This document shows, piece by piece, positions 1,979 to 15,135 of a stretch of DNA of 18,683 nt (position 1 is its first letter; every line of letters starts with the position of its first letter). The notes under the pieces were generated by a model. The model was given only the letters and a program-made list of their open reading frames with translations. It was not told where the DNA came from and searched no databases. The DNA is taken from positions 1-18,683 of the IMG/VR virus record IMGVR_UViG_2703718816_000002. One strand, 5' to 3'. The position numbers and the translations under genes were made by a program. The stretch comes from a virus (lineage: Duplodnaviria > Heunggongvirae > Uroviricota > Caudoviricetes).

Positions 1979-2131
1979 TCATTTCCTGCGATACCACGGA
2001 AGGTTGATAGCTGATTTCATCGCTTTATTTGCTTCAAGCCACATTTTGGAATCACCAATAAATCGGGCTATTACTGCTTTGTTTTGTGCCGCACGAAGCA
2101 TCTGGTGATTGATGGCTATTTCATTGCGCAT
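1979..2131 (-). CDS. kil: Kil-like small protein (50 aa)
   Basis: Not in the ORF track (too short). Translates as MRNEIAINHQMLRAAQNKAVIARFIGDSKMWLEANKAMKSAINLPWYRRK. The segment VIARFIGDSKMW resembles lambda Kil (IATFIGDEKMF, recalled from memory). GGAGG 4 nt upstream of the ATG; overlaps the 3' end of the CIII-like ORF as kil does with cIII in lambda. Confidence 0.45.
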   Translation of the reverse strand: MRNEIAINHQMLRAAQNKAVIARFIGDSKMWLEANKAMKSAINLPWYRRK

Positions 2132-2250
2132 AACGCCTCCAGTTGTTTCTTTGCTGCTCTGATTAATTGTTTAACTCGTCGTGATAATTCAGATTCGTGC
2201 GGGTAGAAAGCGGACATGACGCCGCTACCCGCGAGCTGAAAGTGCATCAT
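2116..2250 (-). CDS. cIII: CIII-like small protein (putative FtsH inhibitor, 44 aa)
   Basis: The ORF track gives 2116..2325 (69 aa), but an internal ATG-ATG at 2250 has an AAGGAG 7 nt upstream. Product MMHFQLAGSGVMSAFYPHESELSRRVKQLIRAAKKQLEALCAMK. The core ESELSRRVKQL parallels the lambda CIII core ESLLERITRKL (recalled). Position just upstream of the kil-like ORF matches the lambda order. Confidence 0.5.
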   Translation of the reverse strand: MMHFQLAGSGVMSAFYPHESELSRRVKQLIRAAKKQLEALCAMK

Positions 2251-2325: not shown

Positions 2326-2694
2326 TTAGTCGGCCTTGATAGTCATATCATCTGAATCAAATATTCCTGATGTATCGATATCGGTAATTCTTATTCCTTC
2401 GCTACCATCCATTGGAGGCCATCCTTCCTGACCATTTCCATCATTCCAGTCGAACTCACAAACAACACCATATGCATTTAGGTCTTTTGAAATTGCTATA
2501 AGCAGAGCATGTTGCGCCAGCATGATTAATACAGCATTTAATACAGCGCCGTGTTTATTGAGTCGGTATTCAGAGTCTGACCAGAAATTATTAATCTGGT
2601 GAAGTTTTTCCTCTGTCATTAGGTCATGGTCGATTTCAATTTCTATTGATGCTTTCCAGTCGTAATCAATGATGTATTTTTTGATGTTTGACAT
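2326..2694 (-). CDS. hypothetical phage protein (122 aa)
   Basis: ORF-track 2326..2694. ATG start with GAGGA 9 nt upstream; first gene after the terminator at 2713-2740. Acidic C-terminus. No family recognised with confidence. Confidence 0.5.
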   Translation of the reverse strand: MSNIKKYIIDYDWKASIEIEIDHDLMTEEKLHQINNFWSDSEYRLNKHGAVLNAVLIMLAQHALLIAISKDLNAYGVVCEFDWNDGNGQEGWPPMDGSEGIRITDIDTSGIFDSDDMTIKAD

Positions 2695-2844: not shown

Positions 2845-3315
2845 CTAATAAAATACCCAGTTTTCTGTTTCTTGGTTGTGTCCAAAGTTATATTCAATAT
2901 CTGGTGTTGATGTATCAATATTCTTCATCCCATCAACAAGAGTTGATACAACAGCCAAATCTTGTTTGATTCTCATTAAATGGTATTTCTTCCGGCGCAA
3001 TAAACTTTCAATAGCAAGTTTCTTCGTTGGGAATGCAAAAGATCTTTCTGCATTTTTTGCTACTTTCTTAATTGCATATCTATTTCTCCTTTGTTTCCAT
3101 TCCTGTAACCACTGATTTGGTGCTGGTTTAAAATTAACAATCCAATGCGCAGGAACCAACCATGCATAATGCTCTGTCTGATGAAAAGCTATATATTGAA
3201 GTGCGAATATTTTTATCCCATCTTCTTCAACTGTCGCCTGGAATCTCCAGAAAACAGGCATTCCATCATGTTCAGTTTCTGATTCAGGAAAAGGTACGCT
3301 CCATGATTTTGTCAT
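2845..3315 (-). CDS. hypothetical AT-rich accessory gene immediately downstream of N (156 aa)
   Basis: ORF-track 2845..3315. ATG at 3315 with GAGGTG 4-5 nt upstream. Visibly more AT-rich than the flanking N and recombination genes. No family recognised. Confidence 0.55.
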   Translation of the reverse strand: MTKSWSVPFPESETEHDGMPVFWRFQATVEEDGIKIFALQYIAFHQTEHYAWLVPAHWIVNFKPAPNQWLQEWKQRRNRYAIKKVAKNAERSFAFPTKKLAIESLLRRKKYHLMRIKQDLAVVSTLVDGMKNIDTSTPDIEYNFGHNQETENWVFY

Positions 3316-11724: not shown

Positions 11725-12453
11725 ATGACAATGAACGAGCTGATAAATAGCAACGTCATCAAAATGACCAGCATTGAAATCTCTGAGCTTACAGGTAAGC
11801 GTCATGACAATGTGAAACGTACTATCGAAATGCTGGCTAAAAATGGTGTTATCCGACATCCTCAAATTGAGGATTGTGGAAGAATCAATGGGTTAGGCTT
11901 AAATCAAAGTTTTCGTGTGTATGTATTCGAAGGCGAACAAGGTAAGCGAGACAGCATTATTGTCGTTGCCCAGTTGTCGCCGGAATTCACCGCTCGTCTT
12001 GTTGACCGTTGGCGAGAGCTTGAAGACGCTGCGGTTAATATCCCCAAAACTCTACCAGAAGCGTTGCGCCTTGCTGCTGATCTTGCTGAGCAGAAAATGC
12101 AACTGGAAAACCAGCTCGCAATTGCCGCACCTAAAGTTGAGTTTGCCGATCGCGTTGGCGAGGCCAGCGGAATTTTGATTGGAAACTATGCAAAGGTTGT
12201 TGGTATTGGTCCAAACAAACTGTTTGCGTGGATGCGCGAACACAAAATCCTTATTGCTTCAGGTTCCCGGTGCAATGTGCCAATGCAGGAATATATGGAT
12301 CGCGGCTATTTCACAGTGAAAGAAACAGCGGTCAATACAAATCACGGAATACAGATATCGTTCACCACAAAAATCACCGGGCGTGGTCAACAGTGGCTGA
12401 CCAGAAAGCTGCTCGATAACGGAATGCTGAAAGTAACAGGGGAGGCTGCTTAA
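11725..12453 (+). CDS. phage antirepressor: Rha-family N-terminal domain plus KilAC-type C-terminal domain
   Basis: 242 aa. N-terminal SIEISELTGKRHDNVKRTIEMLAKNG is Rha-like; C-terminal GNYAKVVGIGPNKLFAWMREHKILIASGSR is KilAC-like. Start could be 11725 or the ATG at 11731; the GAGAGGA RBS favours 11731. Confidence 0.75.
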   Translation: MTMNELINSNVIKMTSIEISELTGKRHDNVKRTIEMLAKNGVIRHPQIEDCGRINGLGLNQSFRVYVFEGEQGKRDSIIVVAQLSPEFTARLVDRWRELEDAAVNIPKTLPEALRLAADLAEQKMQLENQLAIAAPKVEFADRVGEASGILIGNYAKVVGIGPNKLFAWMREHKILIASGSRCNVPMQEYMDRGYFTVKETAVNTNHGIQISFTTKITGRGQQWLTRKLLDNGMLKVTGEAA

Positions 12454-12743
12454 TGGCTAACCTACGCAAAGAAGCGCGCGGCAGAGAATGCCAGGTACGT
12501 ATTTACGGCGTATGCAATGGAAACCCTGAAACTACAGTTCTGGCACATTACCGGATGGCTGGAATTTGCGGAATGGGAATGAAGCCTGACGACCTGATCG
12601 GCGCATGGGCTTGTAGCGCGTGTCACGATGAAATCGACCGACGCACCCATAACCTCGACAACAAAGACGCCAGACTTTACCACCTTGAAGGCGTGATCAG
12701 GACGCAGGCGATACTGCTGAAGGAGGGGAAGATTAAGCCATGA
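12453..12743 (+). CDS. ybcO: YbcO-like (DUF1364) putative nuclease
   Basis: 96 aa. MANLRKEARGRECQVRIYGVCNGNPETTVLAHYR...ACSACHDEIDRRTH parallels E. coli YbcO as recalled. Start overlaps the antirepressor stop; GGGGAGG RBS. Confidence 0.7.
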   Translation: MANLRKEARGRECQVRIYGVCNGNPETTVLAHYRMAGICGMGMKPDDLIGAWACSACHDEIDRRTHNLDNKDARLYHLEGVIRTQAILLKEGKIKP

Positions 12744-13102
12744 ACGAATATCAGTTTGTGCTTCCATATCCGCCGTCGCTGAACACCTACTGGCGAAGAC
12801 GGGGAAGCCAATACTACATCAGCGATAAAGGCCAGAAATACCGAAAAGACGTTCAGCAAATCATCCGCCAACTCAAGTTAGACATTTTCACCAAATCACG
12901 ACTCCGTATCAAAGTCATCGCAGACGTTCCAGACTCCCGCCGCCGCGACCTCGACAACATCCTGAAAGGTTTACTCGACTCCCTTATCCACGCCGGATTT
13001 GCGGAAGACGACGAGCAATTCGATGACATTCGCGTAATTCGTGGTGTGAAAGTATCAGGTGGGAGGCTTGGAATAAAAATCACAGAACTGGAGTGCGCAT
13101 GA
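12740..13102 (+). CDS. rusA: RusA-family Holliday junction resolvase
   Basis: 120 aa. LPYPPSLNTYWRRRG, the catalytic-region motif RRRDLDN and C-terminal GGRLGIKITELE parallel E. coli RusA as recalled. Start overlaps the ybcO-like stop (ATGA). Confidence 0.85.
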   Translation: MNEYQFVLPYPPSLNTYWRRRGSQYYISDKGQKYRKDVQQIIRQLKLDIFTKSRLRIKVIADVPDSRRRDLDNILKGLLDSLIHAGFAEDDEQFDDIRVIRGVKVSGGRLGIKITELECA

Positions 13103-13764
13103 ATAACCAGTATTTACAGTTTGTGCGTGAGCAGCTCATTATCGCTACCGCTGATTTGAGTGGGGCAACAAAAGGTCAGCTTGAAGCCTGGCAAGAGAAT
13201 GCCATGTTCGATACAGGGCGTTACAGGCGAAAAAAAATCCGGTACCGCGATGAAGTGACTGGAAAAATGATAACGCGGGATAATCCACCAATCCCGGGGA
13301 AGCAATCGCTGGCGAAGGGGACGTCAATTCCTCTGGTCAGTCCGGTTGAGTTTTCGACATCATCGTGGCGGCGGGCTGTTCTGTCTCTTGAAGAACATCA
13401 TAAAGCTTGGTTGTTGTGGTGTTACAGCGAGAGCATTTGTTGGGAATATCAGATCGCGATAACACAGTGGGCGTGGAATGAATTTAATACTCAATCCGGT
13501 ACCAGAAAAATTGCAGGGAAAACGCAGGAACGCCTGAAAAAATTAATCTGGCTGGCGGCGCAGGCAGTAAAAGCAGAACTTTTTGGTGGGGAAGGTTACG
13601 AATACCAGGAACTGGCGTTACTGGTGGGAGTAACAACCAAAAACTGGTCCAAGACATTTACTGGTCACTGGGTTGCAATGAAACACATTTTTCATCGGCT
13701 GGATAGTGAAGCTTTATTGTTGGTGGAGGGAACACGTTCAAAACAAAAGGCGGCATTTTCATAG
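13099..13764 (+). CDS. candidate late-gene antiterminator (Q-like) by position; family not recognised
   Basis: The ORF track starts at a GTG at 13093; the ATG at 13099 overlaps the rusA stop and has GGAG 6 nt upstream. 221 aa. Assigned only by synteny: last gene of the nin region, immediately upstream of a promoter plus short-transcript terminator. No similarity to lambda Q that I can see. Confidence 0.4.
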   Translation: MNNQYLQFVREQLIIATADLSGATKGQLEAWQENAMFDTGRYRRKKIRYRDEVTGKMITRDNPPIPGKQSLAKGTSIPLVSPVEFSTSSWRRAVLSLEEHHKAWLLWCYSESICWEYQIAITQWAWNEFNTQSGTRKIAGKTQERLKKLIWLAAQAVKAELFGGEGYEYQELALLVGVTTKNWSKTFTGHWVAMKHIFHRLDSEALLLVEGTRSKQKAAFS

Positions 13765-13780
13765 CAAAGTATTGCAAAAG

Positions 13781-13809
13781 TAGATAAAAAGGCATATATT
13801 TCGTGTAAA
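13781..13809 (+). promoter_or_regulatory. sigma70 promoter candidate (pR-prime-like late promoter)
   Basis: -35 TTGCAA (13781-13786), 17-bp spacer, -10 TATATT (13804-13809), 17 nt after the stop of the Q-like ORF. Confidence 0.5.
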
Positions 13810-13852
13810 TCTGATATTTTGCCGTTATTATACGTGATGGCAAAGCCACTAA

Positions 13853-13876
13853 AACCCGTGACCGAGCGGGTTTTTT
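13853..13876 (+). terminator. Rho-independent terminator (tR-prime-like), about 45-60 nt downstream of the promoter
   Basis: AACCCG tgaccgag CGGGTT with a run of six T. Promoter plus this terminator would give a short RNA of roughly 60 nt, as expected for a Q-antiterminated late unit. Confidence 0.6.
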
Positions 13877-13909
13877 ACCCCCAAAAAAATGGCATAGACA
13901 TTAAACGTG
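13865..13909 (+). repeat. copy 1 of a diverged ~45-bp direct repeat flanking the membrane-protein gene
   Basis: GAGCGGGTTTTTTACCCCCAAAAAAATGGCATAGACATTAAACGTG aligns with copy 2 at 14769-14814 at roughly 70% identity by eye. Copy 1 overlaps the tR-prime-like terminator. Confidence 0.6.
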
Positions 13910-13949
13910 ATGACGATTGTGCCAATACTTTCTCCATCAATGACGCCCC

Positions 13950-13979
13950 TTGACTGCATGGAATCCAATTTGTTATGTA
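13950..13979 (+). promoter_or_regulatory. sigma70 promoter candidate for the membrane-protein cargo gene
   Basis: -35 TTGACT (13950-13955), 18-bp spacer, -10 TATGTA (13974-13979) with a TG 2 nt upstream (extended -10 context). Confidence 0.4.
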
Positions 13980-14017
13980 ATGTGTGTTGATATTTTTGAG
14001 TTGTTAATGGTGTTACT

Positions 14018-14731
14018 ATGGATGACAGTGCTCTGTTCAGAAACTCTTCACTTTTTGTTGCTTATATGGGCTGTCTCGGATGGGGGAGCGCTTATTTCTA
14101 TGGATGGGGTACTTCATTTTACTATGGCTTTCCATGGTGGGTTGTCGGGGCTGGTGTCGATGATGTAGCACGAAGTTTGTTTTATGCTGTGACAGTTATC
14201 GTTATATTCCTTATTGGATGGGGAGTTGGTATTGTTTTCTTTTTGGGCATAAAACAAAAGCGCAATATACAAAATTTGAGTTTTATCCGGCTTTTTCTCG
14301 CGATATTGCTGCTTTTTATTCCACCTGTTCTGGAGTTTTCTGTAATTCATCAGCATGTTGAGCCAGATGTACTGATTTTCTGCGTTCTTGCTGCCTTTGC
14401 AATCACGCTTTTTGTCAGGTCTGGAAGAAGACTTGTTTCAGTCAAATGTTTTTCGGAAATGTCTGTTATTCGCCATCACCGAATTGAGTTCATGATGGCT
14501 GGGTTTATGATTTATTTCTGGGCATTCTCTCTTATTGCCGGTTGGTACAAACCACAGTTTAAGAGGGAATATCAGGCGGTCCACTATGAGAATGTATGGT
14601 ATTACATTATTGCGCGCTATGATGATCGTCTGGTGTTATCGAAATCATACAGGAGTGGGGGTAAGAAATTCGTTATATTTAATAGCGGAAATATTAATGA
14701 TTTTGAAATTAATACTGTCAGAGTACGTTAA
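14018..14731 (+). CDS. hypothetical polytopic inner-membrane protein (237 aa), AT-rich cargo gene
   Basis: ORF-track 14018..14731. At least five hydrophobic segments rich in Phe/Trp/Tyr (for example LFYAVTVIVIFLIGWGVGIVFFLGI, LSFIRLFLAILLLFIPPVLEFSVI, FMMAGFMIYFWAFSLIAGWY). Very AT-rich. Has its own promoter candidate and is bracketed by the diverged direct repeats. No family recognised. Confidence 0.6.
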   Translation: MDDSALFRNSSLFVAYMGCLGWGSAYFYGWGTSFYYGFPWWVVGAGVDDVARSLFYAVTVIVIFLIGWGVGIVFFLGIKQKRNIQNLSFIRLFLAILLLFIPPVLEFSVIHQHVEPDVLIFCVLAAFAITLFVRSGRRLVSVKCFSEMSVIRHHRIEFMMAGFMIYFWAFSLIAGWYKPQFKREYQAVHYENVWYYIIARYDDRLVLSKSYRSGGKKFVIFNSGNINDFEINTVRVR

Positions 14732-14768
14732 AATTTCCTGAGTAATAAAGATTTTACTGCCCGGCATT

Positions 14769-14814
14769 GAGCGGTTTTTTTATGCCAGAAAAATGGTGCA
14801 GTACATAAAATGTG
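14769..14814 (+). repeat. copy 2 of the diverged ~45-bp direct repeat
   Basis: GAGCGGTTTTTTTATGCCAGAAAAATGGTGCAGTACATAAAATGTG, 37 nt after the stop of the membrane-protein gene. Aligns with 13865-13909. Confidence 0.6.
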
Positions 14815-14904
14815 CAGGTGGTTATTAATACCGGTCTTTCAGCTTGCTGGCTTTTTTGACAAGAGTTATTGGTGTGTCACGTTAACCGGAAAAGGGAAAA
14901 AGAC

Positions 14905-15102
14905 ATGCTGAAACAGCAGGATATGACCGAAACTGCCAGAGTGGTGTTTAATGAATTAAGCGTCACCGAACCGGCGACAGTCGGGGAGATTGCGCAGAAT
15001 ACTTACCTTTCACGCGAACGCTGCCAGTTAATACTGACCCAGCTTGTTATGGCGGGTCTGGCAGACTATCAGTGCGGTTGTTACAGACGCCTTCAGTCCT
15101 GA
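14905..15102 (+). CDS. hypothetical small protein (65 aa), possible winged-helix DNA-binding fold
   Basis: The ORF track starts at a TTG at 14869; the first ATG is at 14905 with a weak purine-rich RBS. ATVGEIAQNTYLSRERCQLILTQLVMAGL looks like an HTH recognition helix. The stop lies inside the terminator hairpin. Confidence 0.4.
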   Translation: MLKQQDMTETARVVFNELSVTEPATVGEIAQNTYLSRERCQLILTQLVMAGLADYQCGCYRRLQS

Positions 15103-15115
15103 AGGCTTTTTATTT
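15089..15115 (+). terminator. Rho-independent terminator after the small ORF
   Basis: GCCTTCA gtcc TGAAGGC (7-bp stem, 4-nt loop) followed by TTTTTATTT. Confidence 0.6.
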
Positions 15116-15135
15116 GTGGTGAATGGGCGGCTGGT

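Follow-up and report, generated by a model that had tools for sequence, protein, structure and literature searches.

Two diverged copies of a tR'-type terminator around a membrane-protein gene of a lambda-like prophage probably arose by stacking of phage modules

Why should one accessory gene at the head of a phage late operon be enclosed by two diverged direct repeats? The window, the whole 18,683-nucleotide stretch of DNA that was analysed, is a lambda-like E. coli prophage. The original prediction, made from its letters alone, had placed a membrane-protein gene together with its promoter between two repeats of about 45 bp, and had proposed either an insertion that duplicated its target site or recombination between two terminator-containing module junctions. 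Indeed, both the open reading frame and a promoter-like site lie inside the repeats (Table 1). Our analysis indicates that the repeats are very probably two homologous copies of the late terminator tR' with its leader, brought into tandem by the stacking of modules from different lambda-like phages. Such bracketing of an accessory gene is nothing unusual in the mosaic evolution of phages.

Table 1 Features of the late-operon head of the prophage (window coordinates)
Feature	Position	Strand	Description and basis
Late antiterminator gene Q	13093..13764	+	223 aa as listed; Pfam PF06323 Phage_antiter_Q, E = 1.4e-92; RefSeq relatives "bacteriophage antitermination protein Q", annotated length 221-229 aa
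pR'-like late promoter	13772..13800	+	TTGCAA, 17-nt spacer, TATATT; consensus scan, 9/12 matches; putative function
Predicted short constitutive pR'-tR' RNA	13807..13876	+	~70 nt, two hairpins; putative transcript, from fold (13807-13880, -24.1 kcal/mol, z = -4.1)
Repeat copy 1	13851..13915	+	tR' hairpin 13851-13874, U-run 13871-13876, ~39-nt leader box 13877-13915
Membrane-gene promoter-like site	13950..13979	+	TTGACT 13950-13955, 18-nt spacer, TGnTATGTA 13971-13979; read from sequence; putative function
Cargo (moron) gene	14018..14731	+	237-aa integral membrane protein; PHROG 1521, E = 3e-85 (no assigned function)
Right junction of membrane-gene module	14747..14759	+	13 nt; blastn endpoints: L004 homology ends 14746, L001 homology starts 14760
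Repeat copy 2	14756..14821	+	decayed tR' hairpin 14756-14775, T-run 14775-14781, leader box 14782-14821
TrmB-like small winged-helix ORF	14905..15102	+	first gene of copy-2 module; PHROG 331, E = 2e-37; Pfam TrmB 18.3 bits, below cutoff; relatives annotated "TrmB family transcriptional regulator"
Next junction, same layout	15089..15137	+	terminator hairpin 15089-15106, T-run, exact Chi GCTGGTGG 15130-15137; terminator scan, Chi positions, alignment of six loci
Rest of downstream module	15239..16232	+	AraC-family regulator 15239-15952 (Pfam HTH_AraC, HTH_18; NCBIfam likeness to YdeO, GadX below cutoff); three tRNA genes 15981-16232 (ARAGORN + Rfam)

The two repeats are real and exceed chance. 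Between 13864/5-13909 and 14769-14814, for which about 70% identity had been estimated, 36 of 47 columns match (77%, 2 gaps), and the likeness continues on both sides, into the hairpin upstream and past the segments downstream, so that the full pair (13851-13915 versus 14756-14821; family D4 of the repeat search) matches in 45 of 67 columns (67%). The local alignment score between the intergenic regions bordering the membrane gene was 35, which none of 2000 dinucleotide-preserving shuffles reached (mean 18.3, sd 2.5, maximum 32; z = 6.7), and no other 253-nt stretch of the window scored above 23 against copy 2. The pair might be viewed as AT-rich intergenic regions with GC stem and T-run motifs whose likeness is compositional, by convergence or chance, rather than homologous, since the low-complexity T-run and A-run make up much of the identity and intrinsic terminators have a common form. 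However, besides the score, unmatched by any shuffle or by the rest of the window, about 40 nt of similarity lie past the T-run, intermediates in relatives bridge the copies (the boxes of the related loci L004 and L005 are 67-74% identical to copy 2), and the other terminator of the region (15089-15111) is unlike both. The shuffle test and the graded series of homologues already refute this compositional reading, which keeps next to no probability. A search for a third copy after the tRNA genes (16258-16311) gave an nhmmer E-value of 0.33, and the pairwise score against L004 was equalled in 1 of 500 shuffles.

Copy 1 is close to Q and to the late promoter, its hairpin starting 87 nt past the Q stop codon and 51 nt past the -10 hexamer. 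It combines a hairpin with a U-run (stem AAAACCCGU...GCGGGUUUU, 9 bp, -11.9 kcal/mol, U6) and is homologous to the tR' of relatives. These are the features of a tR', and the overlap of one repeat with a tR'-like terminator was thus correctly recognized, copy 1 containing a strong intrinsic terminator at 13851-13876. The pR'-like site directly after Q, about 70 nt before the terminator, keeps its position in L002, L004, L006 and L009, and homology to L002, a tRNA-type relative, ends at 13874. Copy 1 would be the resident, working tR' of the Q-pR' unit of the prophage. In a lysogen it is predicted to end constitutive transcription from pR' after about 70 nt, and Q-modified RNA polymerase should read through it. 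An Rfam scan of 13000-16500 (E ≤ 1) returned nothing for the pR'-tR' leader or the repeats, and only the tRNAs and STnc100 were found.

Copy 2 lies 905 nt downstream of copy 1 and about 1 kb past Q, beginning 25 nt after the stop codon of the membrane gene. The terminator-like T-run that had been read after GAGCGG in both copies is literally present in each, with 7 T in copy 2, but copy 2 is unconvincing as a terminator: its hairpin reaches -5.1 kcal/mol (z = -0.2), and 88 of 200 shuffles fold as well. Of the features of a tR', copy 2 has homology to the tR' of relatives but neither proximity to Q nor a strong hairpin. Its homologues in L001, L003, L006, L008 and L009 are intact tR' hairpins of -11 to -19 kcal/mol, and single-copy tR' hairpins range from -11.1 to -18.7 kcal/mol. 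Copy 2 stems have fallen to -5.1 kcal/mol in the lineage of the window and -2.2 kcal/mol in that of L010-L012; one G was lost in common, followed by different stem-breaking substitutions in the two lineages. Once internal, copy 2 would no longer have been needed to stop pR' transcripts, and its stem could decay. It is now predicted to be at best a weak terminator for the transcript of the membrane gene, and some read-through into the TrmB-like gene would be expected, up to the good terminator at 15089-15111. To call copy 2 decayed and redundant is a judgement, as a -5 kcal/mol hairpin followed by seven U may still terminate in part. The leader box was also considered as a promoter, having a 9/12 match (ATGCCA-18-TAAAAT) in copy 2 of the window only, and was rejected in this role as a general function because the -10 element is absent from relatives.

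The post-Q terminators of L001-L009 and of IMG/VR loci align with both copies, as do the single tR' and box of 10 other loci and 42 unique elements from 93 loci. Moreover, each copy with its right flank is colinear with its own set of relatives, as expected of recombination between two terminator-containing module junctions, the second of the origins proposed. On the copy 1 side, L004 is 85% identical to window 13006-14746 and carries Q, tR' and the membrane gene without copy 2, the tRNAs following directly. On the copy 2 side, the terminator and its right flank are 91-92% colinear with phages in which that terminator directly follows Q or another cargo gene, the colinearity starting at window 14760 (L001), 14771 (L003) or 14773 (L006); from copy 2 onward to 16273, the window is 91-94% identical to phiSTEC1575-Stx2k, Stx2_EH2201 and phiP27-type phages. 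The 29 columns distal to the box separate the same two groups: copy 1 is 66-69% identical to the membrane-linked L004 and L005, and copy 2 is 72-90% identical to TrmB-linked loci, versus 31-45% between groups. The short right junction between the two homologies has a weak likeness to the bases immediately before the tR' of L001.

Single-copy genomes that lack the membrane gene, which the original prediction suggested looking for, do exist. They include L006, L008 and L009, and this empty site (Q, tR', TrmB-like gene) occurs in about 271 of 5,426 complete E. coli genomes, counted as at least 80% coverage of an in-register chimera of the two flanks, nearly always as a single stretch of about 400 nt. 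The membrane gene together with both copies is present in 196. The single element of L006 (2972-3011) aligns to both window copies, with its left flank 87% and its right flank 91% identical. None of the 5,426 genomes is a recent deletion derivative produced by recombination of copy 1 with copy 2, since no one-piece match to the in-register chimera exceeds 88% identity. The single-copy L008 resembles a copy 1 hairpin joined to a copy 2 box, a form compatible with an ancestral state as well as with a product of deletion.

Such a locus, extra DNA flanked by direct repeats together with single-copy genomes whose one element aligns to both copies, is also what target-site duplication would leave, if a mobile cassette carrying the membrane gene had entered a single tR' and box, duplicated some 45-65 bp and let the copies diverge in place. 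This first of the two proposed origins is contradicted by the degree of divergence: the copies are 67-77% identical, whereas their flanks are 85-92% identical to their own one-copy relatives, and in-place duplication must therefore predate the split from genomes that lack it. Furthermore, the box of copy 1 runs into the leader of the membrane gene in L004 and L005, both without a second copy. As L004 has the membrane gene without copy 2, each copy came with its own module rather than by duplication of a target site. The repeat unit is a functional element of 65 nt, found once in every related prophage, and the insert has no transposase or integrase, the membrane gene being the only family-matched ORF in 13916-14746; no terminal inverted repeats were reported at its ends. 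Repeats of 45-65 nt with 67-77% identity also contrast with the 2-14 bp, initially identical, by which target-site duplications are recognized, and to our knowledge a duplication of 45-65 bp is far above the length of known transposase target duplications. Taken together, these data make in-place duplication improbable.

Also in favour of duplication at the target are the copies around a lipoprotein gene in L001 and L093, which are identical at 30 of 32 positions. In L093, however, the copy beside the resident right flank is identical to the empty site, with three differences in the other copy, as expected if a donor tR' had come in with the cargo. The empty site of this lipoprotein gene is seen in L096, and a 176-aa ORF is bracketed in the same manner in L169. 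The bracket architecture thus recurs, having arisen independently in other Q lineages with two unrelated genes as cargo. Duplicated elements were counted with an nhmmer profile over the fetched loci, as a BLAST search of the phage collection with the 75-nt element returned 17 records and was too insensitive for this purpose.

We therefore favour the stacking of modules. The repeated element would be the intrinsic terminator tR' of the late operon (hairpin and U-run) with a leader box of about 45 nt, and copy 2 would be the tR' belonging to a module of TrmB-like gene, AraC-type or methylase gene and tRNAs, which directly follows Q-pR' in many relatives. A unit of Q, pR', tR', box and membrane gene, stacked on a unit of tR', box and TrmB-like gene, would leave two orthologous terminators in tandem. 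With respect to the order and mechanism of joining, we infer that the left side most likely came from homologous exchange and the right side from an illegitimate join made a few bases before the second hairpin. Alternatively, a cassette of box, promoter, gene and terminator may have been inserted just after the resident T-run, with a right join at 14747-14759 that has no traceable donor.

The enclosed gene fits a moron, a class reportedly defined by Juhala et al. in 2000. Judged by the criteria for morons given in PMC3594210, it is missing from single-copy relatives and lies in DNA of low GC (0.38-0.41 over 13800-14800 versus 0.485-0.52 over 12400-13400, and 0.49 in Q). Its promoter-like site was not called by a strict promoter consensus scan; TTGACT and the TGT-ATG-AA motif are retained in L004 and L005 despite about 68% regional identity. 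To judge from 60 synonymous and 42 non-synonymous codon differences between the window and L004, the gene is under purifying selection. As for a terminator of its own, copy 2 with its weak stem follows the gene, and the next good terminator is at 15089-15111. The product has at least four hydrophobic segments and found no matches in Pfam, NCBIfam or PADLOC; one RefSeq record names it "STM1630 family protein", and the papers naming STM1630 are lists from screens. With a predicted sigma-70-type promoter of its own and a place just downstream of tR', the putative moron should therefore be expressible both from the repressed prophage and in the late transcript.

Whether the second copy was instead duplicated and kept under selection was considered as well, either as a terminator or insulator of the moron or with its box as a cis-acting site before each module (a protein or RNA target, or a recombination signal containing Chi). 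The T-run of copy 2 is uninterrupted in 13 of 13 occupied loci, the two other cargo genes at the site also have a terminator after them, and the box is kept before three downstream modules (TrmB-like, tRNA and membrane gene) behind at least four hairpin or Q types. The exact Chi octamer GCTGGTGG ends the box in 64 of 78 single-copy loci, many of them near-identical, and in 3 of 13 second copies. Nevertheless, the stem of copy 2 is broken in both occupied lineages, and both copies of the window lack Chi: copy 2 ends in the near-Chi GCAGGTGG (14814-14821), at a place where L059 has the exact octamer, and the homologous position in copy 1 (about 13908-13915) is degenerate, with three mismatches. 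In addition, the terminator hairpin is the only secondary structure conserved across the elements, the RNAalifold consensus of the box holding nothing beyond this hairpin and a trivial 3-bp stem; a hairpin drawn by hand in the CAGTACATTAAAC region was likewise unsupported across sequences. At least 10 other modules after the L001-type Q follow the T-run without any box, so the box is not required at the junction. Selection for a functional duplication consequently seems unlikely to us.

A related proposal, formed post hoc and similarly doubtful, is that the box of about 45 nt, ending in a correctly oriented Chi, could serve at the head of the late operon as a conserved landing pad for recombination. 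Chi would switch RecBCD arriving from the cos side, which would then load RecA over the box and the terminator. This would keep the small patch alike between phages and make it a preferred site of crossover for cargo such as morons, tRNA sets and pre-stx modules. Tandem tR' brackets around cargo would then be footprints of such exchanges, and the terminator and Chi pair at 15089-15137, where AraC-type and methylase-type continuations part about 13 nt past Chi 15130-15137 and L003 homology ends at 15138, would act likewise. Homology breakpoints near Chi amount to 5.0% versus 1.7% expected, a threefold excess at both right and left alignment ends. The figure is inflated by the high redundancy of the loci, all of which lie in a single genomic region, and is unusable as a test. 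Many other modules also lack the box in front of them.

Our results mainly document the addition of cargo at the most consequential slot of lambda-like prophages, just after tR', which houses Shiga toxin genes, tRNAs and regulators and whose genes, silent in the lysogen or expressed there independently, become strongly expressed upon induction. Here, a resident and a second terminator enclose each of three unrelated cargo genes, and the T-run is a recurrent breakpoint. As a practical rule for annotation, a second tR'-like sequence 0.6-1 kb past Q marks a moron. The locus also suggests that redundant internal terminators decay, in which case the moron promoter could drive the TrmB-like gene in lysogens, and its read-through might reach the AraC-like regulator and the tRNA genes. 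The current understanding of mosaic phage evolution is unchanged by this finding.

Several parts of the locus can be compared with known systems. As for lambda Chi, the Chi at the box end of relatives is on the top strand, the standard lambda orientation, active for RecBCD that enters at the right-hand cos end. Zheng et al. 2025 (PMC12315714) treated Chi abundance in phages without a recombination module; in contrast, the prophage of the window encodes RecT, and both its copies are without exact Chi. The text of PMC12315714 does not contain "terminator", "intergenic" or "boundar...", and apparently does not discuss Chi beside terminators or module junctions.

In Stx phages, the small RNA StxS comes from pR' transcription that stops at tR'; its 258-nt transcript is processed to 74 nt (PMC7547250). 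Like lambda tR'/6S RNA and StxS, the window has a predicted constitutive late promoter directly after Q and a strong intrinsic terminator close downstream, an arrangement predicted to yield a short structured RNA in the lysogen and, through read-through dependent on Q, transcription into the cargo and lysis genes. Unlike StxS, the predicted RNA of about 70 nt has no Rfam family or sequence match, and unlike both lambda tR' and StxS, the window has a second, decayed terminator copy 905 nt downstream.

The morons of lambda-like phages, such as HK97 gene 15 and lambda bor and lom, are reviewed in PMC3594210. Like these, the gene of the window is an extra gene between units that are adjacent in related phages, with lower GC, a promoter-like site and a terminator-like sequence after it, and like many morons it encodes a small membrane protein. 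In contrast to known morons, the sequence after it is a broken-stem homologue of the phage's own tR' rather than an independent terminator. The Q-to-tRNA region of Stx phages consists of Q, pR', tR', a small ORF, a DNA methylase or AraC-like regulator, ileZ-argN-argO and stx. Some occupied loci likewise carry stx2k just downstream (L011), whereas in the window no stx follows the tRNAs, and ahead of the module lie the membrane gene and a second tR'.

The window is an E. coli lambda-like prophage in standard lambda orientation, and strain OkiPb01678 is 100% identical to it over 13700-14950. The original prediction of ~45-bp diverged direct repeats flanking the membrane-protein gene was borne out, with 36/47 aligned columns matching between the two segments and 45/67 over the full similarity (13851-13915, copy 1, and 14756-14821, copy 2). 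The proposed comparison with shuffled sequence was run. The best local alignment of the two intergenic regions flanking the gene scored 35, above all 2000 dinucleotide-preserving shuffles (mean 18.3 ± 2.5, maximum 32), and copy 2 scored ≤ 23 against every other stretch of the window. Therefore, the repeat is real. Inside the membrane gene, 14240-14266 (minus strand) matched the copy 2 start (ATTGAGCGGTTTTTTTATGCCAGAAAA) in reverse complement at 21/27, with 0/200 shuffles as high; this coding sequence has many homopolymer runs, and the match may be compositional. A candidate third, very decayed T-run and box lies at 16258-16311 just 3' of the tRNA cluster (nhmmer E = 0.33, marginal; score against L004 reached by 1/500 shuffles, marginal), and Stx phage homology stops at 16273, within its T-run.

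Features of the window and of related loci
Locus	Feature	Position	Strand	Remark
window	RecT, N, cI-type repressor		-	
window	O, P, Q		+	
window	Q	13093-13764	+	PF06323
window	pR'-like promoter	13772-13800		predicted; downstream of Q
window	strong hairpin with U6	13851-13876		after pR'-like promoter
window	membrane ORF	14018-14731		237 aa
window	TrmB-like small ORF	14905-15102		
window	second terminator and Chi pair	15089-15137		hairpin GCCTTCAGTCCTGAAGGC and T-run; exact Chi 15130-15137
window	AraC-family regulator	15239-15952		
window	three tRNA genes	15981-16232		
L001 (phiSTEC1575-Stx2k)	element after Q; Chi at box end	2556 (Chi)		
L001	two tR' copies	1823-1847 and 2499-2522		around 141-aa ORF
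L002 (PPompW)	element after Q; Chi at box end	2855 (Chi)		
L003 (Stx2_EH2201)	element after Q; Chi at box end	2543 (Chi)		
L004 (E. coli F374)	element after Q			
L006 (06-00048)	element after Q; Chi at box end	3013 (Chi)		
L008 (UMNK88)	element after Q; Chi at box end			
L009 (NMBU-W12E19)	element after Q; Chi at box end	1668 (Chi)		
L059	Chi at box end	5722 (Chi)		
L169	terminators	1503-1534 and 2120-2181		around 176-aa ORF

Relatives carry one element each (hairpin, T-run and a conserved ~45-nt box) directly 3' of their own Q and late promoter. Profile searching with nhmmer recovered this element in 91/93 loci (104 elements, 42 unique sequences), and the terminator hairpin was the sole conserved secondary structure in the alignment. 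The single element after Q in each relative, together with these profile matches, shows that both window copies are homologous to tR', the late terminator of lambdoid phages, plus its downstream leader.

Homology endpoints of relatives against the window were sharp. The tRNA-type relative L002 matched from Q to 13874, ending within the copy 1 hairpin/T-run, and L004 matched 13006-14746 at 85%, including Q, copy 1, the promoter region and the membrane gene, beyond which it runs straight on to tRNA genes without copy 2. Homology to the Stx phage L001 (91%) spanned 14760-16273, starting at the base of the 5' arm of the copy 2 hairpin, and that to L003 began at 14771. L006 matched 13006-13907 and 14773-16273, and its one element (2972-3011) aligned with both copies. 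Moreover, sequence distal to the box split cleanly into membrane-linked and TrmB-linked groups, with identities of 66-69% and 72-90% within them, respectively, and 31-45% across, and the copy 2 box was nearest to TrmB-linked single-copy boxes (83% to L006). The endpoints, the distal-sequence groups and the affinity of the copy 2 box indicate that each copy arrived with its own downstream module and that the ~30% divergence of the copies is that of two phage lineages rather than decay in place after duplication. Of the two origins first proposed, an insertion duplicating its target site was rejected, because each copy tracks its own downstream module in endpoints and distal groups and differs from the other as lineages do; recombination between two terminator-containing module junctions is supported, each copy being colinear with relatives of its own module.

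Among 5,426 complete E. coli genomes, 196 covered 13700-14950 at ≥ 80%. Empty sites were probed with a chimera joining, in register, the left flank up to the copy 1 T-run and the right flank starting at the copy 2 box, which was covered at ≥ 80% in 271 genomes, nearly all in one ~400-nt piece comprising Q, tR' and the TrmB-like gene. The anticipated relatives with one copy and no membrane gene thus exist (nearly all of these 271 genomes, among them H88, and L006), and some strains, such as STEC316 and ETEC4068, hold both forms in separate prophages. No recent deletion through recombination between copies 1 and 2 was seen in the 5,426 genomes, because no one-piece chimera match exceeded 88% identity. 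In the related locus L007, the membrane gene is frameshifted and both flanking copies are kept.

A convincing intrinsic terminator (-11.9 kcal/mol) coincides in part with copy 1, and the predicted 74-nt pR' leader as a whole adopts a two-hairpin fold (-24.1 kcal/mol, z = -4.1). Copy 2 keeps a seven-T run, and its stem reaches just -5.1 kcal/mol, no different from shuffles; tR' hairpins of single-copy loci range from -11.1 to -18.7 kcal/mol. Relative to the intact hairpin of L001 and the empty-site locus L096 (AACCCGC / GCGGGTT), one G lost from the copy 2 stem is common to both occupied lineages, with a further C-to-G in the 5' arm in the window lineage (giving the -5.1 kcal/mol) and a further C-to-A in the 3' arm in the L010-L012 lineage (-2.2 kcal/mol). 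Such a pattern would be expected of a redundant internal terminator under relaxed selection; selection favouring read-through of transcripts from the moron promoter into the TrmB-like gene could account for it as well.

An exact top-strand Chi octamer (GCTGGTGG) ends the box in most single-copy relatives; many of these loci are near-identical, and at least 7 diverged versions with differing flanks preserve the octamer. In lambda, Chi in this orientation acts on RecBCD that enters from the right (cos) end (PMC12315714). Homology among alternative downstream modules (tRNA, TrmB-like, membrane gene) stops ≤ ~10 nt past the octamer, and AraC-type and DNA-methylase-type continuations part ~13 nt past the Chi at 15130-15137. 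Both window copies have lost Chi (~13908-13915 and 14814-14821), copy 2 reading GCAGGTGG, one change from L059. Chi might play a causal part at the junctions, a tentative lead given that these regions are generally Chi-rich (~1 site per 1.3 kb, both strands counted), the breakpoint-near-Chi test is confounded by locus redundancy, and the box is missing in front of many other downstream modules. In the window, the Chi at 15130-15137 merges with a G9 homopolymer (15134-15142) absent from relatives.

Farther downstream, the AraC-family regulator resembles YdeO/GadX (NCBIfam 106 and 88 bits, far under equivalog cutoffs), and a DNA methyltransferase alternates with it at that position in relatives. 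The tRNA at 15981-16056, tRNA-Met(CAT) by ARAGORN, is labelled tRNA-Met in phage records of close relatives (e.g. L001) and tRNA-Ile by RefSeq in several relatives, and is probably the ileZ of Stx phages (annotated in AP012536/AP012537), in which a modification of the CAT anticodon makes it read an Ile codon. An Rfam STnc100 sRNA match (123 bits, E = 8e-28) covers 16342-16500 and beyond, the searched range ending inside it, where Stx phages have stx genes.

The bracket recurs elsewhere. With L001-type Q, a different Q family, two elements occur in 15/80 IMG/VR loci. A 141-aa lipoprotein-like ORF is flanked in both L001 and L093 by two tR' copies alike at 30/32 positions. The empty site L096 exactly matches left flank plus second copy and differs from the first copy at three positions, as expected if the first copy came with its cargo from a donor phage. 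The L097 class resembles a hybrid of the two copies and may be a deletion product. In L169, a different hairpin follows a 176-aa ORF, and homology to resident sequence restarts within the T-run. These ORFs are two further cargo genes, unrelated to the membrane gene, in the same post-tR' slot, and stx of Stx phages lies downstream of it (stx2k just 3' of the tRNAs in L011). Because loci with L001-type Q alone show at least 10 unrelated continuations after the T-run, the tR' T-run is a recurrent mosaic breakpoint and cargo slot.

The membrane ORF, with at least 4 hydrophobic segments, falls in PHROG 1521 (function unknown), and Pfam, NCBIfam and PADLOC searches gave no match. Its 60 synonymous versus 42 non-synonymous codon differences from the L004 homologue point to purifying selection. 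Its GC is 0.38-0.41 versus ~0.49 in Q, and upstream of it three homologues retain the -35 box TTGACT and the motif TGnTATGTA across a region just ~68% identical. A frameshifted remnant with box, promoter region and tRNA-Arg (L005; E. coli NU14, NZ_CP019777.1 1120947-1121578), between IS4 fragments beside iro (salmochelin) genes and away from any intact prophage, is a decayed piece of the module. Given this selection, low GC, kept promoter-like motifs and absence from relatives, the gene fits the moron definition (PMC3594210), the promoter and terminator criteria being inferential. The arrangement clearly belongs to a known type, in which a mosaic lambdoid prophage carries a moron in its post-tR' slot; what is particular here is that a second tR' copy, in decay, makes up the sequence 3' of the moron.
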